Assembly (NCBI GenBank): GCA_963664395.2
Contig: OY761159.2
Location: 1,440,001-1,504,000, forward strand
Direction of reading: 5' to 3'
Length of the DNA stretch: 64,000 nucleotides
Source of the DNA: Candidatus Binatia bacterium
GTDB taxonomy: Bacteria > Desulfobacterota > Binatia > Bin18
Part shown: piece after piece, positions 12,293 through 27,062 of the stretch
How positions within the stretch are numbered: the first letter of the stretch is position 1
Layout of the letters: every line of letters begins with the position of its first letter
Position numbers and translations under genes: made by a program
Notes under the pieces: generated by a model
Databases searched by the model: none
What the model saw: the letters and a program-made list of their open reading frames with translations, nothing else
What the model was told of the DNA's origin: nothing

Positions 12293-13669
12293 TTACGCCG
12301 AACTTTTTGGCGTGTCAAAAAAGTCGCGCGTCACGCGGAATACCATCGGTGCCAGGAGGAGGAGGCCGACCAGGTTAGGCACGGCCATCAGGCCGTTGAG
12401 GGTGTCGGATAAATTCCAGACGAAATCCACCTTGACGTTGGCAAAGCCAAACGCCGCCACGACCCACCCCACGCGATACACGATCAAGCTGTTTTCGTTG
12501 AACACGTATTGCCAGCAGCGCTCGCCGTAATACGACCAACCCAGGATGGTCGTAAACGCAAAGACGACCAGCGCAACGGTAACGATATAGTGTCCACCGA
12601 CCAGAGTACTCTGAAAGGCCGTAGCGGTGAGGACCGCCCCGGTCAGACCACTCCCATCCGGGCCCAGAACCGTCCACGCACCCGAGGTGAGGATTACCAG
12701 CGCAGTCATAGTGCATACGATGAGAGTATCGATAAGCGTCCCCAGCATGGCAATCATGCCCTGTCGCACCGGACTGGTTGTTTTGGCGGCGGCATGCGCA
12801 ATCGCGGCGGAACCCAGGCCGGACTCGTTGGAGAACACCCCGCGGGCCACCCCAAAACGAACCGCCGCAGCCACCGCGGCCCCGGCAAAGCCGCCGGTTG
12901 CAGCCGCAGGCGTAAAGGCATGGGTGAAAATCAGGCCAATCGCTTCGGGCACAGCGCTAATATTCAGACTGATGACCAGCAGAGCACTCCCAAGGTAGAG
13001 CACGATCATGGCCGGGACCAGCTTACCGGCCACCTCGGCTATGCGTCTGATACCACCGACGAGGACAAATCCAACCAGCCCGGCCACAACGACTCCGGTC
13101 AACACGGCTGGAACGCCGAAGCTGTCCGCTAAAACGGCGGCCATTGAGTTAACCTGTACCGCGTTCCCGATCCCAAAAGCGGCAATCGCACCGAATATGG
13201 CAAAGGCCAGTCCCAACCACCTGCCCAGTTCGGGCGCGGAGTCACCCACGCCCTTGTGCAGGTAATACATGGGGCCACCCACATACCTGCCCACGGCGTC
13301 TACCTCGCGGTAGGTCACTGCACACACGGCCTCGGCGTATTTGGTCGCCATGCCAAACAGAGCGATCAGCCACATGTAAAAGATCGCACCCGGCCCGCCC
13401 AAGGCAATGGCGGTCGCGACACCGGCAATATTCCCGGTTCCAACCGTCGCCGAGAGTGCCGTCATGAGGGCGTTGAAGGGCCTCACCTCGCCTTCGCCGT
13501 CGGGGTTGTGTTTTTCAAACAGCAGCCGAAAGCCGTAGCCAACTTTTCGCCAAGGTATAAAAACCAGCCCCAGGGTCAGGACAACGCCCGTGAAGCCCAG
13601 CAGAACCAGCATCGGCGGTCCCCACACCAAGGCATTGACGCTATCTATAAAGGAGTTGAGTTGCTCCAT
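12293..13669 (-). CDS. Sodium:alanine/glycine symporter (AGCS family)
   Basis: ALSATVGTGNIAGVATAI..GGPGAIFYMW, GGPMYY, RGVFSNESGLGS, LMAVPNL; start MEQLNSF at 13669. Confidence 0.95.
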   Translation of the reverse strand: MEQLNSFIDSVNALVWGPPMLVLLGFTGVVLTLGLVFIPWRKVGYGFRLLFEKHNPDGEGEVRPFNALMTALSATVGTGNIAGVATAIALGGPGAIFYMWLIALFGMATKYAEAVCAVTYREVDAVGRYVGGPMYYLHKGVGDSAPELGRWLGLAFAIFGAIAAFGIGNAVQVNSMAAVLADSFGVPAVLTGVVVAGLVGFVLVGGIRRIAEVAGKLVPAMIVLYLGSALLVISLNISAVPEAIGLIFTHAFTPAAATGGFAGAAVAAAVRFGVARGVFSNESGLGSAAIAHAAAKTTSPVRQGMIAMLGTLIDTLIVCTMTALVILTSGAWTVLGPDGSGLTGAVLTATAFQSTLVGGHYIVTVALVVFAFTTILGWSYYGERCWQYVFNENSLIVYRVGWVVAAFGFANVKVDFVWNLSDTLNGLMAVPNLVGLLLLAPMVFRVTRDFFDTPKSSA

Positions 13670-13689
13670 CGTATTGCTTCCCAGGGGCA

Positions 13690-15429
13690 TCAAGGTCCGG
13701 CTGACCCGGTCCGGGCTGAAGCATCCTTCAGGTATTCGGAGAATTCGTAGATACCATACGCCTCTCGTCCCTGCCACACTGTTCGGGACAGCCCAAATGT
13801 CACAGCCAAGGCAGGCCCTTTGTGTGTATGGCGTACAATGGGAATCGCCGTCAAGGTTTCTCCCTGGCACTCAAGCGACAGTGGAGCAGAAGAAGAGAAT
13901 GCGACAGAGAATTGTGTGGGCCGACCATGCGTAAAGGCGTATTCGAGCTGCCAGTCTACGGGGTCCAGCGGATGTGGGCGGCCGTTCTGATAGACAATGC
14001 CGGAAGAACGCGGCCCTTCAGGAGTTTCGGACCGAGCCAGGAAAATCCCCAGATCAGATCCAAAGGGCAATGACAACAAGCGGCGCGGCAGGAGGCGGTC
14101 CGTTTCATCCGGCCTGAGTACGTCAACAAAGCCCCAGGCGCTGACCGTATATTCGCGGTCCGGAAAGGCCACGCTCCCCTGGAGTTGGCAGAGCTGAATA
14201 AGAGCCGGACGGCTGGCACTCAACGCAGGAAACACCAGATGCAGGTCTACTTCAGCCGGCTCTATCCATGAAGCTGCCAATCCATCTTCGAGCCGAATAA
14301 ACGCCTGGGGATGGGCAAAGCGCATTATCGTTCCCCGGTAGTTGATGGAGAGTCCACTCGGCTGCCGCCGCCACACACATTGCCCGACCTGAACGTGACC
14401 GCGGTCCAGCCCACTCGTATCTTCACCGGTAAAGAGAACCATCTCAGTCCCGCCAAGAGAAAGGAGCAAGCGTCCGGCGTGGACAGACGCACCAGGATCA
14501 AATTCTACGCCTCCCATCACACCTAAACCACTCATCGGGTCATGGAAGTGTAAGGCCAAACGGGTGGGGGCGCGTTCCCACGTCCAAGGCAGCAAAGAAT
14601 CGTACGGTGTTTCGTCCGCTTCGGCCCCCCCCCTCACTGGGGGGTTGAAAGAAAAAACAGAAAAGTCACGGTCCCGGTCAGGCGCGGCTGCATTCTGCAC
14701 AGAGTTGCCCAAGGTATGACAAAAGACGTGGACAAAGCGATCGCGCTCTTGTCCGGGCCAACGCAGGCCCACGCCAAGTTCCAACTGGGCGGCGTTAATT
14801 TTTCCCTGTACGCTCAGCTCAGCCAGCGTTCGTATCTGCGCAGAGTCATCGTGCAGGAAGCGCGCACTAAAGACCTGCATAAAATTATTTTGGGCAGCCG
14901 CGGCGTAGCGCCGTCCAATCGCCACGTCAATGTTCTGTTGCTGCGCTGCTTCACAAAAAGGGATCATAACATCAGAAAAGAAAGACACCTCAAGCGTCGG
15001 CTCCCCTTTGCCAGCTCTCAGCAGTTTTCCCGCTCGTTGGCGGAGTCCGATACCAACATCGCACACGGGCTGCACCACGTTCCAGCCATGAATGAAAAAG
15101 ACGCGCACCGAGTCATGCTGGGCCGTCAGCGCAGACAGAAGTTCGACCAGGGCGCGCAGAAACCACGGCGCCTCGTGTTTGACCTGACTCACGCGGTTCA
15201 AGTCCAGCTCGTTGCGGTCATGCGAGCGGTTGATCAGCGCATAGCTGCGGGTGTGCTCGGCTAAGTCGTGGGTGAGCTCGGCCGTATACAGATCGTTGAC
15301 CTTGATACTATCGGTAATCGGGGCGTCAGCCGGGCGGCGGCCCCCGTGCGGAGCGACTAAGACAATGGGGACCTCACCAGCGGTGAATGTCATCCACGCG
15401 GGCAGGGTCGGCTCAAACGAAAACGGCAT
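13690..15429 (-). CDS. Two-domain hypothetical protein: N-terminal zinc-exopeptidase-like (N-formylglutamate amidohydrolase-like) domain plus beta-rich C-terminal domain
   Basis: LVAPHGG, NDLYT, DLNR, FFIHGW, QLE in the first half; aromatic/glycine-rich strand pattern in the second half. Confidence 0.6.
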   Translation of the reverse strand: MPFSFEPTLPAWMTFTAGEVPIVLVAPHGGRRPADAPITDSIKVNDLYTAELTHDLAEHTRSYALINRSHDRNELDLNRVSQVKHEAPWFLRALVELLSALTAQHDSVRVFFIHGWNVVQPVCDVGIGLRQRAGKLLRAGKGEPTLEVSFFSDVMIPFCEAAQQQNIDVAIGRRYAAAAQNNFMQVFSARFLHDDSAQIRTLAELSVQGKINAAQLELGVGLRWPGQERDRFVHVFCHTLGNSVQNAAAPDRDRDFSVFSFNPPVRGGAEADETPYDSLLPWTWERAPTRLALHFHDPMSGLGVMGGVEFDPGASVHAGRLLLSLGGTEMVLFTGEDTSGLDRGHVQVGQCVWRRQPSGLSINYRGTIMRFAHPQAFIRLEDGLAASWIEPAEVDLHLVFPALSASRPALIQLCQLQGSVAFPDREYTVSAWGFVDVLRPDETDRLLPRRLLSLPFGSDLGIFLARSETPEGPRSSGIVYQNGRPHPLDPVDWQLEYAFTHGRPTQFSVAFSSSAPLSLECQGETLTAIPIVRHTHKGPALAVTFGLSRTVWQGREAYGIYEFSEYLKDASARTGSAGP

Positions 15430-15491
15430 GGCGTTACTATACTCGATATATCCGAAAGACAGAACGTCTCCCAAAGAGAGACACAGAAAGC

Positions 15492-16469
15492 CTATCTACT
15501 CGCCTCGTCAAGCTGGCGTTCCAGGTCTTCAACAGGAATGCTGCCCGGCTGTTGGCCGGTGCGCGCCATACGATTGGCAACGTGTTGCAGCAGGGCGTTA
15601 CAGGGGGTGAGAATCCCGTGGAGTCTACCCAGCATGACAATCTCCCCGTTCAAAAAGTCAGCCTCGATCGTAGGTAAACTGCGCATCAGACTTTGCCACG
15701 ACGAACCGCCAGCCCGCGGGTGGCCTTCAATATCAGCGAGCTTGATCTGAGATCGTACCCGCGCTTGTAATTCATCCTCGGGCACAAACTCAATACCCGC
15801 AGCCTGGTAGCAGGCGAGGGCTTCGGCGCGCAGCGCTCGAATAATTTTTTGCGAGCGCGCCTCAAATCCGCACGCCGCCTGAAAGGCGTTACGCACATTA
15901 CTCAGCAGCTTGGTGTATTTCCAGCGCATAATATTGTGGTCAGGCGCGGCACTAAAGCCACAGGTGGTCAGATCCTGCGTCACTTGGCTAATGAGCGGAT
16001 CAACCCCGTCGGGATAGCGACCGGCATCCAGAATACCGCCAACGGGCTCGGCATGATTCAGAACCAGGCCGGGCTCCAAATAGGTGGCCGGCATCCAGAC
16101 AACCATGCCGTAGACACGCCCAAATCTGCGAACGGCCAGGCGTTCATTGTCCACCCCGTTCTGCCCGCAGATGAGGGTCAGGTCTCGACCCCCCGCGCGC
16201 TCAAGGTCGCGCAGCGCCATTTCCGTGTCCTGGGACTTCATCGTCAGCAACACGACATCATCTGGAGTAAATGCGATCTCTTCGGGATGGCTGACCGCAC
16301 GGATTGTGAGGGTGAGGGTTTCCTTGGGGGTCTTCAAGGTCAGGCCTGTGGATTGGATGGTGTGTAAGTGCTCACCACGGCAGATAAGGATAACTTCATG
16401 CCCGTGCTGAAACAGCCGTGCCCCAATGGCCCCACCGATACCACCGGCTCCGTAGACGATGTAGCGCAT
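15492..16469 (-). CDS. Ketopantoate reductase (ApbA/PanE) family oxidoreductase
   Basis: GAGGIG Rossmann motif, LTMKSQD, QNGV, WKYTKLLSN, SSWQS, EADFLNGEIV. Confidence 0.9.
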   Translation of the reverse strand: MRYIVYGAGGIGGAIGARLFQHGHEVILICRGEHLHTIQSTGLTLKTPKETLTLTIRAVSHPEEIAFTPDDVVLLTMKSQDTEMALRDLERAGGRDLTLICGQNGVDNERLAVRRFGRVYGMVVWMPATYLEPGLVLNHAEPVGGILDAGRYPDGVDPLISQVTQDLTTCGFSAAPDHNIMRWKYTKLLSNVRNAFQAACGFEARSQKIIRALRAEALACYQAAGIEFVPEDELQARVRSQIKLADIEGHPRAGGSSWQSLMRSLPTIEADFLNGEIVMLGRLHGILTPCNALLQHVANRMARTGQQPGSIPVEDLERQLDEASR

Positions 16470-16582
16470 GCGAATCTCCTACACTGTCAATACAGTCAGG
16501 GTCGGATTCTACCCCTCGCCCGCGCGTCTATACACCCCACTCGACAGGACGAACGGAATAAACCCTGAACGGTTCGGTCGGA

Positions 16583-16612
16583 TTGACATTGCCAAGCCAA
16601 CCGCAGGATAAT
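16583..16612 (+). promoter_or_regulatory. Possible sigma70-type promoter for the amidohydrolase gene
   Basis: TTGACA 16583-16588, 18-bp spacer, GATAAT 16607-16612, followed by a GGGGGA RBS and ATG 16639. Confidence 0.4.
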
Positions 16613-16638
16613 CACAGCCACAAAGGAAGGGGGACAAC

Positions 16639-17748
16639 ATGGCACAAGGTTCAATACCAAGCACGATTTTTTCTGCCGACTCGCACACCATAGAGCCTGC
16701 GGATTTGTGGGTACAACGGGTGGACCGAGGCTTTCGAGACCGGGCGCCGCGCGTCATCAAAGACTATCAGGACAAAAAGGGCAGCTTCTTTGTTGCGGAA
16801 GGACTTATGCCATTTCCCGTTGGCGGCGGATTTGCCGCCGGCAAGGACCCCAAAGATCTGGCGACCAATCAGAACGTCGGCTACGAGCAGGCGCGGCCGA
16901 GCGGCTGGGACCCGGTCGAACGGCTCAAGGATCAGGATATCGACGGGGTCGAGGGAGAGGTGCTGTACACGACCCTCGGCATGTTCCTCTTCCACCTCAA
17001 AGACGCCAACCTTCAGTGGGCGTGTTTCCGGGCCTATAACGATTGGATCGCCGAATTTACCAGTCACGCCCCCCAGCGCCTTGTTGGTTTGGGGCTGATT
17101 GCCATGCAGGATGTTGAGCAGGCCGTAGGCGAGTTGCAACGCGTGGCCAATAAAGGCTTGCGCGGGATCATGATTAACGCAGCCTCCCCCCGAGATGTGC
17201 CCTACAGCGACACCTATTTTGATGCGTTCTGGGCGGCCGCTCAGGATCTGAACCTGCCGGTGAGCCTGCATATTCTGACCGGCAAGCAAAACATCCGGCT
17301 CAAAAAGGGACGGGTTGCCTCAAACATGTCTATTATTCACGAAGTCCAAAACTCGCTGACCGATCTGATTTATAACGGTGTGTGCGAACGCTTTCCCCGG
17401 CTGAAGCTGGTTTCCGCAGAAAACGATATTGGCTGGATTGCCCATTATCTGAGTCGTTTGGACATCTCGTCCGAAACGCTCAAGTATGTGGACCCAACCC
17501 CGAATACCCTCCTGCCCAGCGAGTATTTCAAGCGGCAGATCTATGCCACCTTTCAAGACGACCGAGCCGGGGTTGTGACCTACGACCTGAGCGGTGAAGA
17601 CAACCTCATGTGGGCGTCAGACTTCCCCCACCGCGCCTCAACCTGGCCGCGCTCGCACGCAGTGGTGGAGCAAAATTTTGCTGGCATTCCAGCCGAGGTC
17701 AGGCGCAAGATTACCTATGAGAATGCGCGGCGTTTATACGGATTATAA
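16639..17748 (+). CDS. Amidohydrolase family protein (Amidohydro_2)
   Basis: SADSH metal motif, RAYNDW, SLHI, ERFPRLKLVSAENDIGW, MWASDFPH, ENARRLYG. Confidence 0.93.
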   Translation: MAQGSIPSTIFSADSHTIEPADLWVQRVDRGFRDRAPRVIKDYQDKKGSFFVAEGLMPFPVGGGFAAGKDPKDLATNQNVGYEQARPSGWDPVERLKDQDIDGVEGEVLYTTLGMFLFHLKDANLQWACFRAYNDWIAEFTSHAPQRLVGLGLIAMQDVEQAVGELQRVANKGLRGIMINAASPRDVPYSDTYFDAFWAAAQDLNLPVSLHILTGKQNIRLKKGRVASNMSIIHEVQNSLTDLIYNGVCERFPRLKLVSAENDIGWIAHYLSRLDISSETLKYVDPTPNTLLPSEYFKRQIYATFQDDRAGVVTYDLSGEDNLMWASDFPHRASTWPRSHAVVEQNFAGIPAEVRRKITYENARRLYGL

Positions 17749-17802
17749 GACGGGCGACGAATCGGATGACGCTCCGCGCAGCCGGTCCGCCATCCTCCCT
17801 GT

Positions 17803-19017
17803 CTACGTCAGGATGTCCTTCTCGCGGAGCGTAGCTATCTCATCCTGACTCAAGCCAACTATTTCGGCGAGGACGGCATCTGTGTCCTGGCCTAAGCAGG
17901 GCGCCGGACGCCGTATCTCACACGGTGTGCGGGGCATAGTCCAGGGTATGCCCATATGCCGGCGGGTGCCGACTTCCGGATGTTCCAGTTCAACAAAATA
18001 GTCCCGCGCGCCAACATGCGGGCTGTTGACCATGTCGATCGCATCAAGCGACGGATAGGCGGGAATGCCGACCTGCTGTAGATTCTGCGTCGCTTCAGCC
18101 GCGCTGATTTCTTGGGTCCAGGCCGTGACGATCTCTTCCAACGCCGCCTCATTTTCCTTCCGCGCGGTGAGGGTGGCAAAACGCGCGTCTGAACCGAGCT
18201 CGGGTTGGCCCATGACCTCACACAAGCGCTGCCATTCCGTCTCGTCCCGGACCGACAGGCTGACCCAGCGGTCGTCACCTTTGGAGCGAAACACGCCGTG
18301 GGGTGCCATATGGGGGTCACGATTGCCCATGCGTTCGGGTTGGGTGCCGTTCATGCTGTAGTCCATGAGCGCTTCAGGCAATAACATGATTGCCGCCTCC
18401 CACTGGGAGAGATCGATATACTGGCCCTGGCCGGTTTTTTCACGGTGGAGCAAGGCGCTCATGACGGCAAAGGTGGCATGGACACCGCCGTTGGGATCTC
18501 CGTAGGAAAAACCGGCCATCATGGGCGGGCCGCCCACATAGCCGGTCAGGGCTGACAAGCCGCTTTGGGCGACCTGCGGCGGACCATAGGACACAAAGTC
18601 TTTTTCCGGCCCGCTCGTTCCATAGCCCGGTAGAGAGACCATGATGATGTCGGGCTTGATGTGGCGTAGTACGTCATAGCCCACACCAAGTTTTTCCATC
18701 ACGCCCGAGGCAAAATTATTCATCACAATATCACTCTTTGAGACAAGTGTCTTGGCGATAGCGATGGCTTCCGGGGCTTTCAGGTCCAGGGTGAGGGAGC
18801 GTTTGCCCTGGTTGTACTGGTTAAAATAGCCTGCCCGGTTTACGCCCGATTCGTTGTCCGGCCAGGGCGGAATAAGGCGTGACGGACATAAGCGCTTGGC
18901 ACTCTCGATCCGAATGACGTCCGCGCCCAGGTGGGCCAGTTGCAGGGCGCCATACGGGCCGGCCCAAGCCCAGCAAAAGTCAACAACGCGGATTCCATCC
19001 AACGGCGGTCGGCTCAT
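17803..19017 (-). CDS. CaiB/BaiF (class III) CoA-transferase, catalytic Asp retained
   Basis: PLDGIRVVDF..AWAGP, LGADVIRIE, NQGKRSLTLDLK, SYGDPNGG, APCLGQDT. Confidence 0.93.
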   Translation of the reverse strand: MSRPPLDGIRVVDFCWAWAGPYGALQLAHLGADVIRIESAKRLCPSRLIPPWPDNESGVNRAGYFNQYNQGKRSLTLDLKAPEAIAIAKTLVSKSDIVMNNFASGVMEKLGVGYDVLRHIKPDIIMVSLPGYGTSGPEKDFVSYGPPQVAQSGLSALTGYVGGPPMMAGFSYGDPNGGVHATFAVMSALLHREKTGQGQYIDLSQWEAAIMLLPEALMDYSMNGTQPERMGNRDPHMAPHGVFRSKGDDRWVSLSVRDETEWQRLCEVMGQPELGSDARFATLTARKENEAALEEIVTAWTQEISAAEATQNLQQVGIPAYPSLDAIDMVNSPHVGARDYFVELEHPEVGTRRHMGIPWTMPRTPCEIRRPAPCLGQDTDAVLAEIVGLSQDEIATLREKDILT

Positions 19018-19039
19018 GATCTTCTCCTTTTGCTTTCCC

Positions 19040-20245
19040 CTAGACAATGCCGGTTCGCTGAAGCGCAGCCAGGTCCTGGGCGGTCACGCCGAGTTCGGTA
19101 TAGACCTCGGTGTTATGCTGTCCCAAACACGGGGCTGGACGGCGCAGTTCCCACGGCGTTTCCGAGCAGATATAGGGCGCGCCGGGATAGGTCAGCGGGC
19201 CGGCTTCGGGATGATCGAGCTGCACAAAAAAGCCGCGCGCGTTGAGATGTTCGGAGTTCAGCAAATAGCCCATGGTTGAGACTGGCGCAAACGGAATCCG
19301 CCGCGCCTGCGCCTTGAGGTATAAGTCCTGGACCGTGAAATCCTTGACCCATTCTTGAATGAGCAGTTTGAGCGCGTCCCAACTCTCGCCCCGTTTCAGG
19401 CGATCTCCGAAAATAGGCTCGGCGGCCCACTCCGGATTGTCCATCAGGTCAACAAACGAGTGCCAGTGATGCTCCTCCACGCAGCAAATAAAGATCCAGC
19501 CGTCTTTGCACTCCAACAGATCCAGCGGTTGAATCGGTTTATGTCCCAGCCGCGTCACCGCCATACCGGCATAGGAGGCCATCATGGTGCCGAACTCGGA
19601 TATGCCCATCAGGCATTCCTGGACGGAGAACTCGACGTGCTGGCCCTGCCCGTCACGCAGGCCGGCAAACAACGCGCCCAGCGACGCAACCGCGGCATGC
19701 ACCCCAGCCGTAAACCCGGACTGCTGGCCAAAGGCTTTGAGCGGCGGGAGATGGTCGCTGCCCGGCCCCCCACCGTTCAGAAAACACAGTCCACCGGCAT
19801 TCCATAGGGTGAGGTCAGACGCCTCATAATCTTTGTGCGGCCCCTGTAAACCGAACGGCGTAATTGAGGTCATGACCAAGCCAGGGTTGATGTCCGCCAG
19901 TTGGTCATAGTCCAAACCGACGGCCGACATCTGCTTGGGATGGATATTATGGATAAGCAGGTCCGCGTCTTTGACGAGACGCTGAAAGACGGCTTGACCC
20001 TGTGTCTGTTCCAGGTCGAGCGTGATACCGCGTTTATTGGTGTTCAGGAAAAGATACAGCCCGCTCTTTTCAGCGTGCGGCGTTCCGCCTGGAAACGGCC
20101 CGCGCTGACGGGTCGCGTCTCCCCCCTGCGGCGATTCAATTTTAATCACCTCTGCGCCCATGTCGGCCATAAGCTTGCTTGCGTAGGCGGCAGAGACCAT
20201 CTCGCCGCATTCAATGATCCGAAAACCTGATAAGGCACCCGGCAT
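19040..20245 (-). CDS. CaiB/BaiF (class III) CoA-transferase subunit, apparently lacking the catalytic Asp
   Basis: ALSGFRIIE, MGAEVIKIE, NTNKRGITLDL, SITPFG, APCLGQHN; QQSGFTAG at the catalytic position. Confidence 0.9.
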   Translation of the reverse strand: MPGALSGFRIIECGEMVSAAYASKLMADMGAEVIKIESPQGGDATRQRGPFPGGTPHAEKSGLYLFLNTNKRGITLDLEQTQGQAVFQRLVKDADLLIHNIHPKQMSAVGLDYDQLADINPGLVMTSITPFGLQGPHKDYEASDLTLWNAGGLCFLNGGGPGSDHLPPLKAFGQQSGFTAGVHAAVASLGALFAGLRDGQGQHVEFSVQECLMGISEFGTMMASYAGMAVTRLGHKPIQPLDLLECKDGWIFICCVEEHHWHSFVDLMDNPEWAAEPIFGDRLKRGESWDALKLLIQEWVKDFTVQDLYLKAQARRIPFAPVSTMGYLLNSEHLNARGFFVQLDHPEAGPLTYPGAPYICSETPWELRRPAPCLGQHNTEVYTELGVTAQDLAALQRTGIV

Positions 20246-20326
20246 ACTCCCTCCTTCTTTCCGGTCGGATAGCTCCAGCGTAATAGAGTCAGACTCTAGT
20301 AGGCCGCTTGTGCCACGTCAAGCTTG

Positions 20327-20359
20327 ACTCCAGACCGTGCACGCAGTACTCCAGACCGT
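20327..20359. repeat. 12-bp direct repeat with 21-bp period in a divergent intergenic region
   Basis: ACTCCAGACCGT at 20327-20338 and 20348-20359. Confidence 0.75.
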
Positions 20360-20374
20360 ACTTGTGGTGCGGAC

Positions 20375-20650
20375 ATGGAGCTGAGCGACATTTACTTGCG
20401 GGTTGAGCGGGCCGATATTGCGCTCATCAAATGTGTCATCGAGTCCTACGAAGAGTTCGGCATTGTGCGCACGATTGATAATAAAAAGGCCATTATCGTG
20501 CTCCTGATCGTGCCGGACTTTATTGAGCATACCTGGGCCGCGCTCGAATCACTCCGCCAGCACATGGACTGGCATCAAGTCCCTCGTCCAACAGAACATG
20601 ACGACTGGTTGATGGAGAAGATGCATCCGGAGAATAAGGGCTCAGCGTAG
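20375..20650 (+). CDS. DUF4911-like small protein
   Basis: YLRV.RADIALIKCVIESYEEFGIVRTID pattern; ATG 20375. Confidence 0.75.
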   Translation: MELSDIYLRVERADIALIKCVIESYEEFGIVRTIDNKKAIIVLLIVPDFIEHTWAALESLRQHMDWHQVPRPTEHDDWLMEKMHPENKGSA

Positions 20651-20693
20651 GTCCGAGGGCCCACGAACTCACTTCCACCACACACAATCGACT

Positions 20694-20939
20694 ATGGCCA
20701 AACACTCCGATTGGGTCACAGCAAGTGAAATTGGAACCTACGTCTATTGCGAGGAAGCGTGGCGGCTGACGCATGGACTCAAAATCCCGCCGGGCAATGT
20801 GCGGGCGCTCCGCCGCGGAACGGAAACGCACGCCGCGTGGCAACGGGTTGAACGCCGGACTGCCCGGCTCATGCGACTCGCTCTCATTGTGGCGGCTATC
20901 GCCCTGGCCTGTATCCTGCTCCGTGTCTACCTGTCGTGA
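20694..20939 (+). CDS. N-terminal half of a split Cas4-like nuclease with C-terminal transmembrane helix
   Basis: VTASEIGTYVYCEEAW (Cas4/RecB N-terminal helix with first Fe-S Cys), RRGTETH (G-x3-H motif), hydrophobic tail LALIVAAIALACILL. Confidence 0.8.
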   Translation: MAKHSDWVTASEIGTYVYCEEAWRLTHGLKIPPGNVRALRRGTETHAAWQRVERRTARLMRLALIVAAIALACILLRVYLS

Positions 20940-21424
20940 TGGCCATCCTGACGCTGCTGCTCAGCCTGTCCGTCCTGCTCTTTGTGGTTGCCCTCATAGG
21001 CCGTCGCCGGGCCGGCTTTGGCTCCGGCAGGACCATCAGCCACGATGACGTGCGGCTGTCTTCCGAGCGCTATATGCTCCGCGGGCAACCGGATCGGATT
21101 GTCCAACGCGGGCGATATTTTATTCCGGAAGAAAAGAAGTCCGGACGACAGATGAACGAGAGCTATCAAGCCCAACTCGGGGTGTATCTGGTGTTAGTCG
21201 AAGAAGAGTACGGCGTCCGGCCCCCCTACGGCTTCATCATTTTGAGAGACGGTGAGCGGGTCAAGGTGAAAAACACGCGCAGGCTGCGTTCGCGGGTGAT
21301 TGGTATTGCGGAACGCATTCGAGCGCATCGTCAGCAGCTCGACAAATCCCTCTCCCCACCCTCTACGCCAGCCAAGTGCCAAAACTGTAGCCAGCGTCAG
21401 AACTGCGAGCAGCGGTTGGTGTGA
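20939..21424 (+). CDS. C-terminal half of a split Cas4-like PD-(D/E)xK nuclease with N-terminal transmembrane helix
   Basis: TM AILTLLLSLSVLLFVVALIG, LRGQPDRIV, IPEEKKS, QLGVY, CQNCSQRQNC; TGATG overlap with the upstream gene (GTG 20936 is an alternative start). Confidence 0.88.
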   Translation: MAILTLLLSLSVLLFVVALIGRRRAGFGSGRTISHDDVRLSSERYMLRGQPDRIVQRGRYFIPEEKKSGRQMNESYQAQLGVYLVLVEEEYGVRPPYGFIILRDGERVKVKNTRRLRSRVIGIAERIRAHRQQLDKSLSPPSTPAKCQNCSQRQNCEQRLV

Positions 21425-21437
21425 AAGGACGCGGAAA

Positions 21438-21791
21438 ATGACACGAACAAAGAGCGCGACGAACCCCATTGAATATGAAGAGAATAGCGGCAATATCTTT
21501 GCGGACATTGGACTGCCCAACCCAGAGGAACATCTGGCCAAGGCGGAGCTTGCCTTTCAAATCTGCCAGATAATCCGGGCACGGAAGCTCACTCAGGTCA
21601 AAGCAGCTAAGCTGCTCGGTCTCAAGCAGCCGAATGTCTCTGCACTCATGAAAGGCCATTTGGACGGGTTCTCGGCTGAACGCTTGTTTCGCTTTCTCAA
21701 TAAGCTGGATAAGTCCATCGAAATTGTTATCAGGGACAAACCGCGTCAGTCCAAGCATGCTGATGTACGGGTTGTCGTGGATGCCGTGTAG
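21438..21791 (+). CDS. HigA-like XRE/HTH antitoxin-type regulator
   Basis: SGNIFADIGLPNPEEHLAKAEL, LTQVKAAKLLGLKQPNVSAL, FSAERLFRFL. Confidence 0.9.
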   Translation: MTRTKSATNPIEYEENSGNIFADIGLPNPEEHLAKAELAFQICQIIRARKLTQVKAAKLLGLKQPNVSALMKGHLDGFSAERLFRFLNKLDKSIEIVIRDKPRQSKHADVRVVVDAV

Positions 21792-21838
21792 CGGTTTCGT
21801 TCACCGTCATTTATTCGGCAATAATCCCAAGAGGTGAG

Positions 21839-22180
21839 CTAGGCTGGCAGGGGTGCTCCCTTGACATGTATTGTGGCCTCATTGCGGGACTTGGGCTTGG
21901 GCTTAAAACTGATAGTGACATCATAGTCGAGCTTCCGCATGTAGCGGAGCAGCCGGTCGATTGTGAACTTCTCCAGTTTGCCCCGAACCAGGTTCGAGAC
22001 GCTCGGTTGTGGCAACCCAAGAATAGCCCCTGCTTCCTCTTAGGTGAGGCCCCGTTTCTCAATCAGCTCTCCAATGCTCAAGGCGATGGTCGCTTTCACT
22101 AAGCGCTCCTCTGGATTTGGCAGATTGAGGTCAGCGAACACATTTCCGCTTGAAAGCGTTACTTTGATATCTGTACTCAT
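21839..22180 (-). pseudogene. HigA-like XRE antitoxin pseudogene with in-frame TAA
   Basis: MSTDIKVTLSSGNVFADLNLPNPEERLVKA...KRGLT*EEAGAILGLPQPSVSNLVRGKLEKFTIDRLLRYM...PLPA*; the TAA at 22040-22042 replaces the Q of the LTQ motif seen in the intact neighbour. Confidence 0.9.
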
Positions 22181-22254
22181 GGCTTTGCTTTTCTCCTCAG
22201 AGCGTACTGCTCCCGATAATGCTGCTCGGCAGCCCTCAAACGTTGTCGTACCAG
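22177..22254 (-). pseudogene. 3' remnant of a Gp49-like/HigB (RelE superfamily) toxin gene
   Basis: Frame reads LVRQRLRAAEQHYREQYALRRKAKP*, with its TGA overlapping the antitoxin ATG (ATGA); resembles the C-terminal helix of these toxins; only about 40 bp separate it from the tatC stop. Confidence 0.65.
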
Positions 22255-22296
22255 ACATCTTCGCGCGCTCGGAAACGCCGGCCCATCAAAAGGCCA

Positions 22297-23064
22297 TTAC
22301 TCGTCAGTAGACTCCAAGTCAGTCCCCTCACTTGCCTCCTTCTTTTTTCCAAACACATAGGCCACCCCGATGCTGAGCACATACAGCAAGAGCAGCGGGA
22401 CGGCGAGGAGCATTTGGGAGATAGCGTCGGGTGGGGTGAGGATGGCGGCCAGGATAAATACGCCGACCGCAGCGTACCGGAATGCGCCTATGAGGGTATG
22501 GTGGGTGATGAGCCCAACGCGGGCAAAGAAAAAGGCGAGTACGGGAAGTTCAAACGTCACCCCAAAGGCGAGCAGCGTTCTGGCCGTGAAGGTCAGATAT
22601 TCGCTGATTTTTAGGGTGGCCTGTACTCCGATGCTGCGGAACTCTCCCAGGAAAAACGCATACGCAATCGGCAGGACGACGGTATAACAAAAGCCGGCCC
22701 CGAGCACGAAAAAGAATGAACAGAAGAGGACAAACGGCCAGACGTAGCGGCGTTCCTGCGGGTATAGGCCTGGAGCCACGAACTGCCAGAGCTGGTAGAA
22801 AATAGCGGGACTGGCGCCAAAGAGCGCGGCAATAAAAGCCACCTTGATTTTTGTAAAGAATGCTTCGGTCGGGCTGGTACCAATCAGAGAATGGGGATCG
22901 GTGGTTATGTGACGGAGGGGCTGAGCGAGAAAATCAAACAGCACATTGGCAAAGAAATAGGCCGGGAGAAAGACAATGAAAATGGCGAGCAAGGACCGAA
23001 TGAGACAGCTGCGCAACTCATCCAGATGGCCGGTGAGCGGCATGGACCGGTCGTCATAGGCCAT
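22297..23064 (-). CDS. tatC: Twin-arginine translocase subunit TatC
   Basis: HLDELR, PTEAF, YQLWQFVAPGLYPQE, FGVTFELP, AAILTPPD. Confidence 0.97.
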   Translation of the reverse strand: MAYDDRSMPLTGHLDELRSCLIRSLLAIFIVFLPAYFFANVLFDFLAQPLRHITTDPHSLIGTSPTEAFFTKIKVAFIAALFGASPAIFYQLWQFVAPGLYPQERRYVWPFVLFCSFFFVLGAGFCYTVVLPIAYAFFLGEFRSIGVQATLKISEYLTFTARTLLAFGVTFELPVLAFFFARVGLITHHTLIGAFRYAAVGVFILAAILTPPDAISQMLLAVPLLLLYVLSIGVAYVFGKKKEASEGTDLESTDE

Positions 23065-23067
23065 GTC

Positions 23068-23370
23068 CTAATTGTCCCCTCCGGTGCTCCCTTTCTTTTC
23101 TGTTGCCTCTGAAGACTGTGTCGAGGCGGAAGGGGGAGCAGGCGGCATGGCCGTAGGGTTCGTCCGCACGTTGCGTTCGGTGGCGCGCACCTCTTCGTCC
23201 AGCATGATCTGGGCGTTATCGAGCTCTTCGGTGATGCCACTCGTTGCCCGGCGCAATTCGGCAAAGGCTTTGCCCAAACCACGCGCCGCCTCGGGCAGGC
23301 GCTTGGGGCCGAGTACGATCAGCGCCACAACCATAATAATCACCAACTCCGGCATCCCGATTCCAAACAT
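23068..23370 (-). CDS. tatB: Twin-arginine translocase TatB (TatA/B family)
   Basis: MFGIGMPELVIIMVVALIVLGPKRLPEAARGLG; directly upstream of tatC. Confidence 0.9.
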   Translation of the reverse strand: MFGIGMPELVIIMVVALIVLGPKRLPEAARGLGKAFAELRRATSGITEELDNAQIMLDEEVRATERNVRTNPTAMPPAPPSASTQSSEATEKKGSTGGDN

Positions 23371-23450
23371 ATTTGCCTCTTGGGTTACGGTAGTATAATC
23401 GAAAAACCGGCGCAAGTTATGGCCGGGGCGCAGTGGGAAAGGAGCGATCA

Positions 23451-24485
23451 ATGTTACAGACAGGCATCGTGCTGGACGCACGCTATCAAGACCACAACCC
23501 AGGTCAGGGCCATCCGGAACGTGCGGAGCGGATCGGCACCTTACTCAGCCGCTTCGCGTCCTATAAGCGCGACGGTTTGAAACGTTTTGACCCCAGACAC
23601 GCGACGCATGAAGAGATCGCTTTGGTGCACGACACCAGCCTGATTGGCCGCGTCGCTGCCTCTGCCGGCCTCGAAGCCGCAGCCTTTGACGCGGATACGC
23701 GCGTGTCCGCGCAGTCGTATGAGACGGCACTCCTCGCCACCGGAGGCCTTTTGACTATTCTGGATGCGGTCATGGAACGCGAAGTGGACAATGGCTTTGC
23801 CTTGGTGCGACCGCCCGGTCATCACGCCGAACGCAACCGAGCCATGGGCTTTTGTCTGTTCAACAGCGTTGCGGTTGGTGCGCAATATCTGAGGGAACGA
23901 TTTGGGCTAAGCCGGATTCTGGTGATGGACTGGGACCTGCACCACGGCAATGGCACCCAGCACAGTTTCTACGACGACCCTGGCGTGCTGTATCTCTCGA
24001 CCCATCAATATCCGTACTACCCCGGCACGGGTGCCGCCGAAGAGGCCGGCCACGGCAGCGGCGAGGGGTATACTGTCAACCTGCCTCTCAGCGCCGGCTG
24101 GGGAGATGCCGCCTTTCTGCCTCTCTTTGAAGAGGTGATTGATCCCATTTGTCGCCAGTTTCAGCCCGAGTTCGTGTTGATCTCTGCCGGCTTTGATGCC
24201 CACGCCCGCGACCCACTCGGTGGTCTGACCGTCACAGCAGAAGGCTTTACGGCCCTGGCACGTATTCTCCTGCGCGTGGCGCGGGATCAGGCCCAGGGCC
24301 GTTGTGCCGCCATTCTCGAAGGCGGCTACGATCTGGAAGGGCTTGAAACCTCAGTGATCCACGTTCTGGACGAAATGGGCGGCGACCGGCTCGACCATCC
24401 GCTCCCCACATATGAACGACAGGGTTTGCTTCCCAACGTCCGGGCCGTGCAGCAGCGCCATTGGGAGTTGCCGGCGACGGCCTAA
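23451..24485 (+). CDS. Histone deacetylase family (AcuC/AphA-like) zinc deacetylase
   Basis: HPE, RPPGHHA, GFC, DWDLHHGNGTQ, SAGFDAH, LEGGY all intact. Confidence 0.95.
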   Translation: MLQTGIVLDARYQDHNPGQGHPERAERIGTLLSRFASYKRDGLKRFDPRHATHEEIALVHDTSLIGRVAASAGLEAAAFDADTRVSAQSYETALLATGGLLTILDAVMEREVDNGFALVRPPGHHAERNRAMGFCLFNSVAVGAQYLRERFGLSRILVMDWDLHHGNGTQHSFYDDPGVLYLSTHQYPYYPGTGAAEEAGHGSGEGYTVNLPLSAGWGDAAFLPLFEEVIDPICRQFQPEFVLISAGFDAHARDPLGGLTVTAEGFTALARILLRVARDQAQGRCAAILEGGYDLEGLETSVIHVLDEMGGDRLDHPLPTYERQGLLPNVRAVQQRHWELPATA

Positions 24486-24497
24486 TTGAGCGACGGG

Positions 24498-24746
24498 TTA
24501 GGCGGCCTGATGGAATCTTGCCACGGACACTGGTCTTGTCTGTGCGAACCCTTGCCGATGCAGTTTTATGCGTTCGACCTCGTGAAGCGTCTCAGCGGTA
24601 AAATAGCTTTCACTACAGCTTGAGCACGAGATCAGGGGAATCCCTTCAATCACCAGCAGCTCCTCGCCAGAACCATAGCTACGGGAGACGTGGCGGATTC
24701 GGGCGGCTTGCTCTCCACAAGTGTCACATTTCAGTCTGCTCATCAT
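24498..24746 (-). CDS. YgiT/MqsA-type zinc-finger protein without HTH
   Basis: CDTCG...LLVIEGIPLISCSSCSESYF. Confidence 0.85.
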   Translation of the reverse strand: MMSRLKCDTCGEQAARIRHVSRSYGSGEELLVIEGIPLISCSSCSESYFTAETLHEVERIKLHRQGFAQTRPVSVARFHQAA

Positions 24747-24939
24747 CAATCCACGCGGCGGGCTGGTCGCGGTGCTGCTCAGTACTCTTTGCGGTCTCAA
24801 TCAGTCGGTCCTGGTATTGCTTCTGCATCTCCATGTAGAAGGCCACCAGTTGTGTAGGATCATGCTCGAAGCGCGCCGATATGCGGTATCGCACTTCGCG
24901 GATCTCGTCGATTACCGGATCACTTAGGTTCTGTTTCAT
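24724..24939 (-). CDS. Small helical protein, probable antitoxin partner of the upstream PIN toxin
   Basis: DPVIDEIREVR..ISARFEHD pattern; overlaps the 3' end of the PIN gene. Confidence 0.7.
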   Translation of the reverse strand: MKQNLSDPVIDEIREVRYRISARFEHDPTQLVAFYMEMQKQYQDRLIETAKSTEQHRDQPAAWIDDEQTEM

Positions 24940-25414
24940 CGATCCCTCCCAGGAGTTCCAGGGGTGTCACCAAAGCCGGCACGAAAAGCCCGAGCATGGC
25001 ATTCACACGACGGATGTGTCCAAACTTGTTTGCGTTTGCAAGGTGCCGACAATTCCAGGTTACCAGAAAGTCACACTTGTGATAGGAGGCGAGCGCTAGG
25101 TGCAGCGCGTCCCCACCAGGATCAGCCGGCATCAGTTTGTGCCGGATATACGCCTGGACAATCTCGGCGATGGCCGGCTCGACGGGCAGAAGCGGCAGAT
25201 CACGAACCAGAGCCAATCGTTTCGTGCTGCGCTCCGGTATACCTCCGGCTAGTTCGTCTAGCACGGCTGGACTGGTGACCATCTCGTGGCGATCAGGCGC
25301 ATTGTCCCACCACCGTCGGGTCCACTCCCGACGCGCCACGATGTCGGGGGCGGTGCGTTCCTCATGATAGAAGCTGGGGATCGTGGTCTCAACATACACA
25401 CGCGGTTTGGCCAT
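24920..25414 (-). CDS. PIN-domain (VapC-like) ribonuclease toxin
   Basis: VYVETTIPS, S.AVLDEL, DALHLALA, DFLVTWNCRHLAN, LVTPLEL. Confidence 0.9.
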   Translation of the reverse strand: MAKPRVYVETTIPSFYHEERTAPDIVARREWTRRWWDNAPDRHEMVTSPAVLDELAGGIPERSTKRLALVRDLPLLPVEPAIAEIVQAYIRHKLMPADPGGDALHLALASYHKCDFLVTWNCRHLANANKFGHIRRVNAMLGLFVPALVTPLELLGGIDETEPK

Positions 25415-25477
25415 ACCGGCAAGATACCGCACCTAGCTTCCGAGGAATAGCTCGAATAAGGCGAGCCGCGTTAGTGG

Positions 25478-25807
25478 TCATTCGGGGTGAGTCCAGGAAG
25501 CGAAGTCTGCCATTTTGACTGCACGGCGTTTCATAATGTAAGCGCGAACTACCTCAATGTATTTTCGCCGAGATTCGAGATCATTCAAATTCAGGGACAT
25601 CTCGGGTTTAAACTTTCCCTTGAGGCGATTACATACGGCGCACGCTATGACAATGTTCTGTGGTTCGTCGGGTCCGCCGGCCGCCGCGGGAATCAGGTGG
25701 TCTTCCTCGGCGATCATGAACGCTTCAAAATCGCTCATGAGGTCGCGACAGCAGTAGACGCAACGTCCATTATCGCGTTTGAAGATTTCCTTGAAGTATT
25801 TGGACAT
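25478..25807 (-). CDS. HNH endonuclease (McrA-like)
   Basis: RDNGRCVYC, EDHLIP..AGG, NIVIACAVCNRLKG. Confidence 0.9.
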   Translation of the reverse strand: MSKYFKEIFKRDNGRCVYCCRDLMSDFEAFMIAEEDHLIPAAAGGPDEPQNIVIACAVCNRLKGKFKPEMSLNLNDLESRRKYIEVVRAYIMKRRAVKMADFASWTHPE

Positions 25808-25814
25808 CTGCACC

Positions 25815-27062
25815 CTAGTCCCGTACCGTCCGCTCGGCATGAATCTCGGCGTGCGAGGCGATGACCTTCTCTGCTTTGAGTTGAGCGATCTGCTGGTCGG
25901 AATAGTTGAGTAAGCGGCGCAGCACGCTATCCGTATGCTCGCCTAGCAGCGGGCCTGGGGCGGCGACGTAGCCTGGCGTCTGAGAGAGTTTGAACGGCGG
26001 CCCGTCAAGTATGACCTCCTCCGTTTTCCCGTTTTCCTGGGCCGGCAGCCGTGCCCAATACCCCCGCGCCCGCAGTTGCGGGTCGCGGTCCAAGTCTTCC
26101 CCATTGGCAACCACGCCGGCGGCGACGTCGGCTTCTTGCAGGCGGGTCATGACTTCTTCAGCCGTATGCTGCTGCGTCCAGGCTTCAATATACCCGTCCA
26201 AGGCGTCTTGATGGTGGAGCCGGTCTGCGAGGCTGGCAAAGCGCGCCTCGCGCGTCCAGGCCGGCTGCCCCAAGACGCGGCACAGACTCTGCCATTCTGC
26301 GTCGGTGAAGACGGCAATCGCGCACCAGCGGTCGTCACCCTTGCAGCGATACACCCCGTGCGGCGCCGCCGGTGCTTCTTGGGAACGATTACCGACCGGC
26401 TGACTGGGCGTCTGATTATTCAAGATGTCGAGCAAGCCCGGCCCGACCAGGCTGGAAATAGCCTCAAACTGCGACAGGTCAACGAATTGTCCTTGGCCGG
26501 TTTGTTTGCGATGCCACAGGGCCATCAATACTGCCAGCGCGCCGCTATAGCCGCCGGTCATGTCTGCATATGAATAGCCCCAGCCGGCCGGCGCTTTGCC
26601 GGGATGACGCATCTGGAGCGTATAGCCGGACAAGGCCTGGAGCGTCGGCCCATAGCTGACATAATCCTTGTGCGGCCCGGTATGTCCAAAGCCGGACATG
26701 GAGACCGCAATAATATCGGGCTTTATTTTTTTGAGGCTGTCATAGTCGAGCCCCCAGTTGTGCATGACCCGCGCGCTGAAATTATCGATCACGACATCTG
26801 ATAGGGCCGCGAGTTGTTGGGCGATCTCGATCCCACGCGGGTCGGCCATATTGATAACCGTACTCTCTTTGCCCCGATGCAGATTGCCGGAAAAGCCGCC
26901 CCGACGCGTCCCCAGGTCAAGCGTATCGCGCCGCTCGATTTTAATGATCTCAGCGCCCTGGTCGGCCAGGATGCGCACTGCGACCGGACCGGCAACCACC
27001 CAAGTGAAATCAAGAATCCGGACGCCTTCGAGCGTACGACGGCCTGTTCGTTGGGATGTCAT
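25815..27062 (-). CDS. CaiB/BaiF CoA-transferase, catalytic Asp retained
   Basis: LEGVRILDFTWVVAGP, GAEIIKIE, SYGPTLQALSG, SYADMTGG, PLLGEHT. Confidence 0.93.
   Translation of the reverse strand: MTSQRTGRRTLEGVRILDFTWVVAGPVAVRILADQGAEIIKIERRDTLDLGTRRGGFSGNLHRGKESTVINMADPRGIEIAQQLAALSDVVIDNFSARVMHNWGLDYDSLKKIKPDIIAVSMSGFGHTGPHKDYVSYGPTLQALSGYTLQMRHPGKAPAGWGYSYADMTGGYSGALAVLMALWHRKQTGQGQFVDLSQFEAISSLVGPGLLDILNNQTPSQPVGNRSQEAPAAPHGVYRCKGDDRWCAIAVFTDAEWQSLCRVLGQPAWTREARFASLADRLHHQDALDGYIEAWTQQHTAEEVMTRLQEADVAAGVVANGEDLDRDPQLRARGYWARLPAQENGKTEEVILDGPPFKLSQTPGYVAAPGPLLGEHTDSVLRRLLNYSDQQIAQLKAEKVIASHAEIHAERTVRD

Follow-up and report, generated by a model that had tools for sequence, protein, structure and literature searches.

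Two overlapping open reading frames (ORFs) at positions 20,694 to 21,424 of the window, as we call the whole 64,000-nucleotide stretch of Candidatus Binatia bacterium DNA analysed here, encode complementary parts of one Cas4-type nuclease domain, with a predicted membrane helix in each part at the point where the domain is cut. Both genes are real, the split is conserved, the two halves co-occur, their homology to Cas4 is complementary, conservation extends to the catalytic and cluster residues, and nothing links the pair to cas genes. On the strength of the sequences, we consider it quite probable that ORF1 and ORF2 represent an obligate two-subunit iron-sulfur (Fe-S) nuclease architecture anchored at the cytoplasmic side of the membrane. 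The two-gene family is large and unnamed, and bigger than the first-pass annotation of this DNA had supposed.

Complementary Cas4 homology of the two genes

As that annotation had described, the frames overlap at a TGATG junction and lie in different frames, the TGA of ORF1 sharing its A with the ATG of ORF2, and all motifs that it listed are found in the translations. In ORF1 these are ASEIGTYVYC (ending in Cys19), GTETH (G-x3-H, with His46), and RRTARLMR followed by LALIVAAIALACILLRVYLS, a hydrophobic stretch that extends to the C terminus. ORF2 has MAILTLLLSLSVLLFVVALIGRRR with GRRR, then GQPD (Asp52), EEKK (Glu65-x-Lys67), QLGVY (Gln79 and Tyr83), and CQNCSQRQNC (Cys147, Cys150, and Cys156). 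An alternative GTG start at 20936 would give ORF2 162 amino acids (aa) instead of the 161 counted from the ATG at 20939, but the ATG is the conserved start, because the orthologue L010 has TAATG and no GTG.

Comparison with models and structures places the two chains on complementary regions. In Pfam, ORF1 matches PDDEXK_1 at positions 3-51 of 247 (E 0.0083; 16.5 bits, short of the cut-off of 22), while ORF2 matches Cas_Cas4 (PF01930) at positions 52-158 of 160 (E 1.7e-10; 41.7 bits, above the cut-off of 22.7) and also PDDEXK_1 at positions 110-246 of 247. One PADLOC Cas4 model of 161 positions is matched by ORF1 at 5-50 and by ORF2 at 36-159, and a second, of 229 positions, at 15-71 and 71-195, respectively. 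Likewise, the family profiles fall on residues 56-107 (ORF1; E 0.043) and 120-214 (ORF2; E 2.9e-6) of the structure 4r5q_A in the Protein Data Bank (PDB), and on residues 13-51 and 103-199 of 8d3l_I; a combined ORF1 plus ORF2 family profile covers residues 10-199 of the 218 of 8d3l_I in a single stretch (E 9.3e-11) and 4r5q_A in two stretches. Against a canonical Cas4 reference of 212 columns, composed of six single-chain Cas4 proteins from related genomes, hhalign aligns ORF1 with columns 15-59 (probability 81.8%) and ORF2 with columns 74-196 (99.2%). Among 39 relatives of ORF1, matches at E<=0.1 are to PDDEXK_1 in 21, to Cas_Cas4 in 15, and to Exo5 in 3. In a fused Thermoplasmata protein (L041, 266 aa), a single PDDEXK_1 stretch runs over positions 3-247 of 247 with the two helices as an insert. 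The proposal that the two frames jointly reproduce one Cas4 in the correct order, with ORF1 supplying the N-terminal part and ORF2 the remainder, is therefore supported by Cas4 models, structures, and canonical Cas4 proteins alike.

The residues expected of such a domain are conserved. Cys19, Gly42, and His46 are invariant in the ORF1 family alignment (39 sequences), as are Asp36, Asp52, Lys67, Gln79, Tyr83, Glu88, Cys147, Cys150, and Cys156 in that of ORF2 (24 sequences). Cys19 aligns with the YCPR cysteine of 4r5q_A, 8d3l_I, and the canonical Cas4 proteins of related genomes; His46 aligns with the RG..H histidine of the two structures, and the ORF2 cysteines with their CxxCx5C. In other words, ORF2 carries the RecB-type catalytic motifs of the Cas4 family (Asp, Glu-x-Lys, and Gln-x3-Tyr), and the four Cas4-type cysteines, which would hold the predicted cluster, are present but on two chains, Cys19 on ORF1 and Cys147, Cys150, and Cys156 on ORF2. 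In a census of 72 loci (see below), the cysteine is found in 69 and GxxxH in 68 of the 69 ORF1 copies, and GxPD, ExK, and QxxxY of ORF2 in 70, 70, and 68 loci; CxxCx5C is exact in 57 of the 72, and 11 Clostridia loci have the variant CxxCxCx4C.

For the Cas4 metal site, PMC13621843 describes an upstream His together with Asp, Glu, and Lys, and a cluster held by four cysteines. ORF2 alone would thus be short of one cluster ligand and one metal ligand, both of which ORF1 has. The invariant His46 is a stronger argument than the shared cluster that ORF2 needs ORF1.

Current annotation names ORF1 merely a hypothetical protein and ORF2 'Cas4' or 'PD-(D/E)XK nuclease', which is why the pairing is invisible there; a protein atlas gives only generic names, and neither Pfam nor NCBIfam holds a model of the ORF1 family.

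Table 1. Positions in the window of the two genes, their landmarks, and the adjoining genes
Feature	Position	Strand	Remarks
ORF1	20694..20939	+	81 aa; N-terminal Cas4-type nuclease piece, then C-terminal membrane helix (tail-anchor layout)
ORF2	20939..21424	+	161 aa; N-terminal membrane helix, RRR, Cas4 catalytic core, three C-terminal cysteines
Junction GTGATGG	20936..20942	+	ORF1 stop TGA overlaps ORF2 start ATG by 1 base
Cys19 codon of ORF1	20748..20750	+	Predicted first [4Fe-4S] ligand; invariant; aligns with Cas4 YCPR cysteine
His46 codon of ORF1 (G-x3-H)	20829..20831	+	Predicted active-site metal ligand; invariant in ORF1 family alignment
ORF1 membrane helix, residues 62-80	20877..20933	+	Predicted; RRTARLMR before, one residue after
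ORF2 membrane helix, residues 2-20	20942..20998	+	Predicted; GRRR after
Asp52 (GQPD) to Glu65-x-Lys67 (EEKK) of ORF2	21092..21139	+	Catalytic; aligned to D and ExK of Cas4 structures
QxxxY of ORF2, Gln79 to Tyr83	21173..21187	+	Invariant
Cys147-x2-Cys150-x5-Cys156 of ORF2	21377..21406	+	Predicted remaining three cluster ligands
Upstream DUF4911 gene	20324..20650	+	Pfam DUF4911 E 6e-12; ends 43 nt before ORF1
Downstream HTH_37 (XRE-type) gene	21438..21791	+	Pfam HTH_37 E 4.9e-25; 13 nt after ORF2

Conservation of the split and co-occurrence of the halves

Within the genus, the split is kept in 12 of 12 loci (the window and 11 others, with ORF2 91-95% identical), the junction reading TGATG in 11 and TAATG in 1, that is, with two different stop codons. 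It is also kept in a haplotig of the same assembly (contig C5, 12,991 bp) that is collinear with window positions 13396-26410 at 97.4% identity. The ORF2 match in C5 was considered as a possible paralogue and ruled out, since the entire contig is a collinear strain-variant haplotig and not a duplication; its ORF2 (L085) has Val at the nearly invariant Gly92. DNA contigs of two other runs (X3 and X4) and one RNA-library contig (X15, 20457-21157) span the junction with 0 gaps. An indel that would fuse the two frames, which the annotation had named among the findings that would speak against its proposal, is thus seen neither in the contigs of other runs nor in the haplotig. The ratio of nonsynonymous to synonymous substitution rates (dN/dS) is 0.16 for ORF1 and 0.10 for ORF2 in 55 pairs from 11 of the 12 same-genus loci (L010 was omitted for its length difference; the genomes are kin and the pairs not independent), and both genes are under purifying selection.

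A wider scan with one genome per species yielded 72 loci, which represent six bacterial phyla as well as archaea; by record title, 13 are Binatia-type, 13 Planctomycetota, 1 Alphaproteobacteria, 30 Chloroflexota, 11 Clostridia, 1 Bacteroidota, and 3 archaea. In an iterative search of plus-strand frames with ORF1, 69 of the 72 proved to have an ORF1-like frame immediately before ORF2, so the two-gene layout is conserved across genomes; 66 of the 69 are split, and the remaining 3, all archaeal, are single-chain. Homologues are thus not normally one chain. The junctions overlap by 1 nucleotide (nt) in 17 cases, by 4 nt in 14, and by 8 nt in 2, leave a gap of 1-60 nt in 22 (in Clostridia a GGA-rich stretch after TAA) and of more than 60 nt in 8, and are unclear in 3 and fused in 3. 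This variety excludes a shared sequencing artefact as well as a conserved recoding signal. Programmed frameshifting to yield one chain was also considered and rejected, as the junctions vary in frame offset, overlap, and spacing. As for the three loci that have no adjacent ORF1, L037 holds a truncated ORF2, and L043 and L048 have other genes upstream, with an ORF1-like protein encoded elsewhere in each of these two genomes.

The family extends well beyond these loci. ORF2 homologues, of which there are 74 among 205 candidates, are mostly 150-196 aa long, with an N-terminal hydrophobic helix and identities down to about 30%. A profile of the 39 ORF1 relatives, run against 1.84 billion representatives of clusters formed at 50% identity, matches 1,794 at E<=0.001, 760 of them at E<=1e-10; the best 150 of the 1,794 are all 75-133 aa long, and the match extends to their C-terminal end. 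In RefSeq, two Isosphaeraceae plasmids have a hypothetical protein (88-91 aa) overlapping by 4 nt a 169-aa 'PD-(D/E)XK nuclease family protein'.

The annotation had further stated that ORF1 homologues failing to co-occur with ORF2 homologues would speak against a joint function. In 121 genomes from the class of an Anaerolineae metagenome-assembled genome, for which the profile tables were cross-tabulated by hand, the ORF1 profile has matches in 89. Matches to the ORF2 profile are bimodal, with 88 strong ones that include the helix (E<=6.1e-34) and weaker ones to canonical Cas4 (E>=2e-20). Both halves are present in 87 genomes, only ORF1 in 2, only ORF2 in 1, and neither in 31, and in one of the ORF1-only genomes as well as in the single ORF2-only genome the gene lies at a contig edge. 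The halves are directly adjacent in 39 of these 87 pairs, separated by 0.65-1.06 kb in 33, and unlinked in 15, where they lie on different contigs or, in one genome (G055), 2.8 Mb apart on one contig. Likewise, among 101 genomes from the family to which Clostridium sp. ASF356 belongs, 69 have ORF1 and 68 have ORF2, with both in 68 and neither in 32, the single ORF1-only case again being at a contig edge. Both halves thus occur in 87 of 90 Chloroflexota-class and 68 of 69 Clostridia-family genomes that have either one. The retention together of halves that are unlinked is hard to explain unless they function jointly.

It is very unlikely, in our estimate, that ORF2 is a self-sufficient nuclease held by its N-terminal anchor and that ORF1, a small membrane protein, is unrelated to it and only happens to be encoded upstream. 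While ORF2 does have D, ExK, and QxxxY, it is without the fourth cysteine and the His metal ligand, and relatives of ORF1, in which Cys19 and His46 are invariant, give recurrent matches to PDDEXK_1 and to Cas4 in its N-terminal part. In two loci ORF1 is not adjacent, which might suggest autonomy, but both genomes encode one elsewhere, and the two genes are either both present or both absent in 118 of the 121 and 100 of the 101 genomes, including genomes in which they are unlinked. The fused forms are one continuous domain. According to PMC12501428, the Methanosarcina mazei solo-Cas4 cuts DNA without its cluster, which would favor an ORF2 acting alone.

That the frames are remnants of a broken gene, either a frameshifted single-chain Cas4 with a membrane hairpin or the product of an assembly indel, can be dismissed almost entirely: single-chain forms exist (archaeal L041, L045, and L055, and P0068 and P0066 among the protein hits) and some copies are plainly decayed (L022, L037, and L038), but the split is the rule within the genus and across phyla with many junction types, 33 of the 87 Anaerolineae-class genomes have 0.65-1.06 kb between the halves (with another gene there in the 10 loci fetched) and 15 have them unlinked, dN/dS is 0.10-0.16 on both halves, independent contigs have no gaps at the junction, and fused rows nest within split clades in the tree described below.

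Predicted membrane helices and the proposed two-chain architecture

On the Kyte-Doolittle scale, the 19-residue maxima are 2.65 for ORF1 (residues 62-80) and 2.95 for ORF2 (residues 2-20), and neither chain has another hydrophobic segment. ORF1 fits the layout of a tail-anchored protein in hydropathy and charge, with its predicted helix at residues 62-80 of 81 and positive charge on the N-terminal side. The same holds for its relatives (n=62), which have the helix at the extreme C terminus with a median of 3 residues after it and 3.05 Lys plus Arg in the 12 aa before the helix versus 0.48 after. ORF2 relatives (n=51) show the mirror image, with the helix at the extreme N terminus, a median of 5 residues before it, and 0.14 Lys plus Arg before versus 3.75 in the 12 aa after. 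By the positive-inside rule, the soluble parts of both chains would face the cytoplasm, as the annotation had suggested, and the flanking charge fits this family-wide. An Fe-S nuclease needs a cytoplasmic location. The tail after the ORF1 helix and the head before that of ORF2 (medians of 3 plus 5 aa) match the loop of 8-10 aa in the fused forms, which means that the cut would fall exactly in the outer loop of a hairpin.

We infer membrane insertion, the topology, heterodimer formation, a shared cluster, and DNA as the substrate; if the chains do pair, the nuclease may be assembly-gated, as the annotation proposed. ORF1 and ORF2 would be co-translated and jointly form one Cas4-family PD-(D/E)XK nuclease domain at the cytoplasmic face of the membrane. 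ORF1, being tail-anchored, would contribute the N-terminal helix with the first cluster cysteine, Cys19, and the metal-binding His46. ORF2, anchored by its N-terminal helix with the N terminus outside and the C terminus inside, would contribute Asp52, Glu65-x-Lys67, Gln79-x3-Tyr83, and the other three cysteines. The antiparallel helices may pair like the hairpin of the rare archaeal single-chain forms and thereby join the halves, such that the [4Fe-4S] site and the active site would both span the two chains. DNA cutting or trimming, as with Cas4-like nucleases, would then be confined to places where DNA meets the membrane, and the pair would have no part in CRISPR adaptation.

Several observations weigh against this architecture. 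The similarity of ORF1 alone to Cas4 is weak (Pfam E 0.0083, sub-cut-off; PDB profile E 0.043; hhalign 81.8%), and ORF2 scores 62.7 bits against the NCBIfam model TIGR00372 cas4 (positions 55-179 of 180), under the 65-bit cut-off. The membrane helices are predicted from hydropathy and charge counts. RNA-library contigs cover ORF1 and ORF2, but such libraries can contain DNA, and hence these contigs do not prove transcription. Some copies are decayed, with an internal stop in L022, a truncation in L037, and a broken frame in L038, and others deviate at key positions: L024 and L036 are without the third cysteine, and L025 has Gln for His. The genomic context is conflicting, with housekeeping genes in Clostridia and Chloroflexota as opposed to plasmids, methyltransferases, TIR plus Piwi, and toxin-antitoxin genes in Planctomycetota and Binatia. 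Finally, according to PMC12501428, cysteine mutants of the M. mazei solo-Cas4 lose the cluster and keep nuclease activity, which implies that the shared cluster may not gate activity.

The decayed and deviant copies come from Binatia-type and Planctomycetota genomes, L025 being one of three Tautonia copies, and they fit an accessory status in these lineages.

Genomic context and possible roles

Two patterns of distribution are apparent. In the Anaerolineae-type class and the Clostridia family, the pair is near-core: 89 of the 121 and 69 of the 101 genomes have it, as a single copy. The gene order in Clostridia is gdpP-rplI-dnaB, an OB+HD (YhaM-like) gene, ORF1-ORF2, and a TRAM/U5 RNA methyltransferase gene, and in Chloroflexota BrkB/YihY, ORF1-ORF2, hisS and nadK, with recN next in one locus. 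Where the halves are 0.65-1.06 kb apart, the gene between them (in 10 of 10 loci fetched, L103-L112) encodes a membrane-anchored, Pro/Thr-rich L,D-transpeptidase, with YkuD in 5 of 5 tested against Pfam; this protein may act as a third partner or connect the pair with the cell envelope. In Planctomycetia, the pattern is patchy, the pair being present in 12 of 101 genomes and in 2-3 copies in 4 of them, and in the class of the window organism it is confined to a single genus, where 18 of 24 genomes have it. In the other families of that class, 3 of 16 genomes have only weak matches, to frames of 212-237 aa resembling single-chain Cas4. No neighbor family other than the pair itself was found to be common across phyla when the neighboring ORFs of the 72 loci were clustered, and no match indicating phage origin was found among 50,697 phage records at E<=1e-5.

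A tree was built from 37 of the 72 loci, covering the groups (near-identical Binatia rows and others were omitted), and 5 canonical Cas4 proteins, with a midpoint root. The helix-bearing family lies on one side of a branch with support of 98/97, opposite the 5 canonical proteins. The Binatia rows are nested in a Planctomycetota clade (96/97), and Binatia probably acquired the pair from Planctomycetia. The three fused archaeal rows stand in two places among the Chloroflexota rows, where support is weak. With the loci sampled here, the split is the common state and the fused forms appear secondary.

With respect to function, housekeeping DNA maintenance near the membrane or envelope (repair, recombination, or segregation) is, for the family as a whole, a reasonable if tentative candidate. 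It is possible, though rather doubtful, that the pair acts on DNA entering by conjugation, phage infection, or transformation, as a barrier or in its processing. Such a tethered nuclease would degrade or trim the entering DNA and, in the window organism, be accessory, horizontally acquired, and defence-like. The patchy, multi-copy occurrence in Planctomycetia speaks for this, as does the presence of the pair on 3 PLSDB plasmids and a Tundrisphaera plasmid, the neighbors on Planctomycetia plasmids being a MobF relaxase, large DNA methyltransferases, UmuDC, and VapBC. One plasmid copy is beside TIR/SEFIR and Piwi proteins, McrBC is 1.5 kb away in one Clostridium, and the Binatia copies, which nest in the Planctomycetota clade and are limited to one genus in their class, stand beside toxin-antitoxin-like genes at a strain-variable spot. 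Conversely, single-copy presence in most genomes of two lineages, in conserved housekeeping neighborhoods, is unusual for a defence gene; PADLOC matches are only to Cas4 and generic PD-(D/E)XK models; and no defence gene is a conserved neighbor, those seen being in single loci. An entering-DNA barrier nevertheless fits the mobile copies, that of the window included, better than DNA maintenance does. Some other function is unlikely, and an RNA-related one more unlikely still.

The Tundrisphaera copy is on plasmid pTA3_3 of Tundrisphaera sp. TA3 (L034), where the pair is convergent with the TIR/SEFIR protein, the Piwi protein (a short-Argonaute-type defence pair), and a tyrosine integrase; the plasmid carries the whole stretch twice (L034 and L039).

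A role of the pair as a Cas4 acting in trans for the CRISPR-Cas systems of the same genome during spacer acquisition is improbable in the extreme. ORF2 is the sole Cas_Cas4 match in the genome, which has two cas loci, but these are of type I-F (L091, C1:3.488-3.507 Mb; Cas1, Cas2-3, Csy1, and Csy2) and type I-E (L092, C1:3.365-3.384 Mb; Cas3, Cse2, Cas7, Cas5, Cas6e, and Cas1), and types I-E and I-F are not known to use Cas4. The Cas1 matches, at C1:3.375 Mb and 3.498 Mb, are some 1.9-2.0 Mb from the window (C1:1.440-1.504 Mb), no cas gene is a common neighbor in the 72 loci, and adaptation complexes are not characterised by a membrane tether. The window itself holds no cas1, as the annotation had noted, and no direct search was made for a CRISPR array. 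The independence from CRISPR claimed for the pair is thus upheld, and the pair belongs with solo-Cas4 (a Cas4-family gene outside a cas locus) and not with CRISPR-associated Cas4 (beside cas1 and cas2 or fused to cas1, in the vicinity of an array). In the type I-E locus, the Cse2-bearing ORF of 316 aa has a weak N-terminal VRR_NUC match (22.2 bits, sub-cut-off), which may reflect an over-long ORF call.

Around the pair, all 13 Binatia-type loci have the DUF4911 gene upstream, whereas none of the other groups among the 72 has it there. This gene probably forms one transcription unit with ORF1, and RNA-library contigs (2 records) extend from it into ORF1. On the plus strand no promoter-like site was detected, the ends of the pair gave no terminator-like site, and Rfam and tRNA scans of the window gave no match. 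Downstream, the HTH_37 gene is part of a strain-variable neighborhood and is not conserved as a component of the module. Contigs of two other runs (X4 and X15) match the window as far as position 21424, where ORF2 ends, and carry unlike sequence beyond it, and same-genus loci also differ downstream of the pair, with toxin-antitoxin-like HTH_37 genes adjoining. A second HTH_37-like gene on the minus strand (window 21839-22258) is broken into two ORFs and is probably a pseudogene, 22040-22258 corresponding to residues 3-52 and 21839-22015 to residues 62-103 of the intact paralogue at 21438-21791. The segment from 20300 to 21800 of the window is present in public runs labelled as sponge metagenome and as several coded organisms; four metatranscriptome runs contain 23-40% of its sampled words.

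Known relatives and significance of the family

The solved Cas4 structures (Pcal_0546, 4R5Q; SSO0001, 4IC1; Cas4-Cas1-Cas2, 8D3L; and a Cas4/Cas1 fusion, 7MI4) share with the pair the PD-(D/E)XK core, D, ExK, QxxxY, the upstream His, and one plus three cysteines. They are, however, single soluble chains of about 200-220 aa, most of them beside Cas1 and Cas2, whereas in the pair the domain is interrupted after the His helix and before the first core strand, with a membrane helix at the cut in each half and no cas gene nearby. In the iron-staple nucleases AddB, Dna2, and Exo5, the N- and C-terminal parts of the PD-(D/E)XK domain are pinned together by a four-cysteine [4Fe-4S] cluster, and weak matches to Dna2 (E 0.081, combined profile) and Exo5 (3 of the 39 ORF1 relatives) were obtained. 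Those domains, however, lie within large soluble helicase-nuclease proteins, while here the staple would join two small membrane proteins.

The single-chain relatives with a membrane hairpin, L041 and L045 of Thermoplasmatota and L055, an archaeal form with numerous helices, belong to the same clade and have the same motifs; they differ in being one polypeptide, with a loop of 8-10 aa where the pair has a stop and a start, and account for 3 of the 72 loci. L055 (positions 3768-5831) encodes a single chain of 688+ aa in which the Cas4 N-terminal piece is followed by a long run of hydrophobic helices that replaces the hairpin, then by the Cas4 core and, at the C terminus, two TRAM domains. The Clostridia gene downstream of the pair likewise begins with a TRAM domain.

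Solo-Cas4 proteins, as treated in Hudaiberdiev et al. 2017 (PMC5704561) and in the M. mazei study (PMC12501428), resemble the pair in belonging to the Cas4 family and in lying outside CRISPR-cas loci. According to the latter source, the M. mazei protein differs from the pair in being soluble and single-chain, and it assembles into a large oligomer. The main text of PMC5704561 contains neither 'transmembrane' nor 'split', and its one instance of 'membrane' is unrelated, although its supplements might list such sequences. Searches of the full-text literature found no description of a membrane-anchored or split Cas4.

In summary, a whole family splits the Cas4 domain into two genes, with both halves apparently tied to the membrane, and its ORF1 component is found in about 70% of the sampled genomes of two large lineages. 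Carriers include the culturable Clostridium sp. ASF356, Singulisphaera acidiphila, Paludisphaera borealis, and Tautonia sociabilis. Conceivably, though we advance this with reserve, the pair exemplifies a large undescribed class in which an active site and an Fe-S cluster extend across two separately encoded, oppositely anchored membrane proteins; it would handle DNA as a machine bound to the membrane and tied to the envelope, for instance by clearing or processing DNA at the division site or at entry ports, and mobile elements would have spread it to Planctomycetota and Binatia. If the proposed architecture is correct, it would exemplify in nature how a tail-anchored and a signal-anchored chain can share a catalytic site and an Fe-S cluster, and would suggest that a DNA transaction takes place at the bacterial membrane that has so far gone unrecognised.

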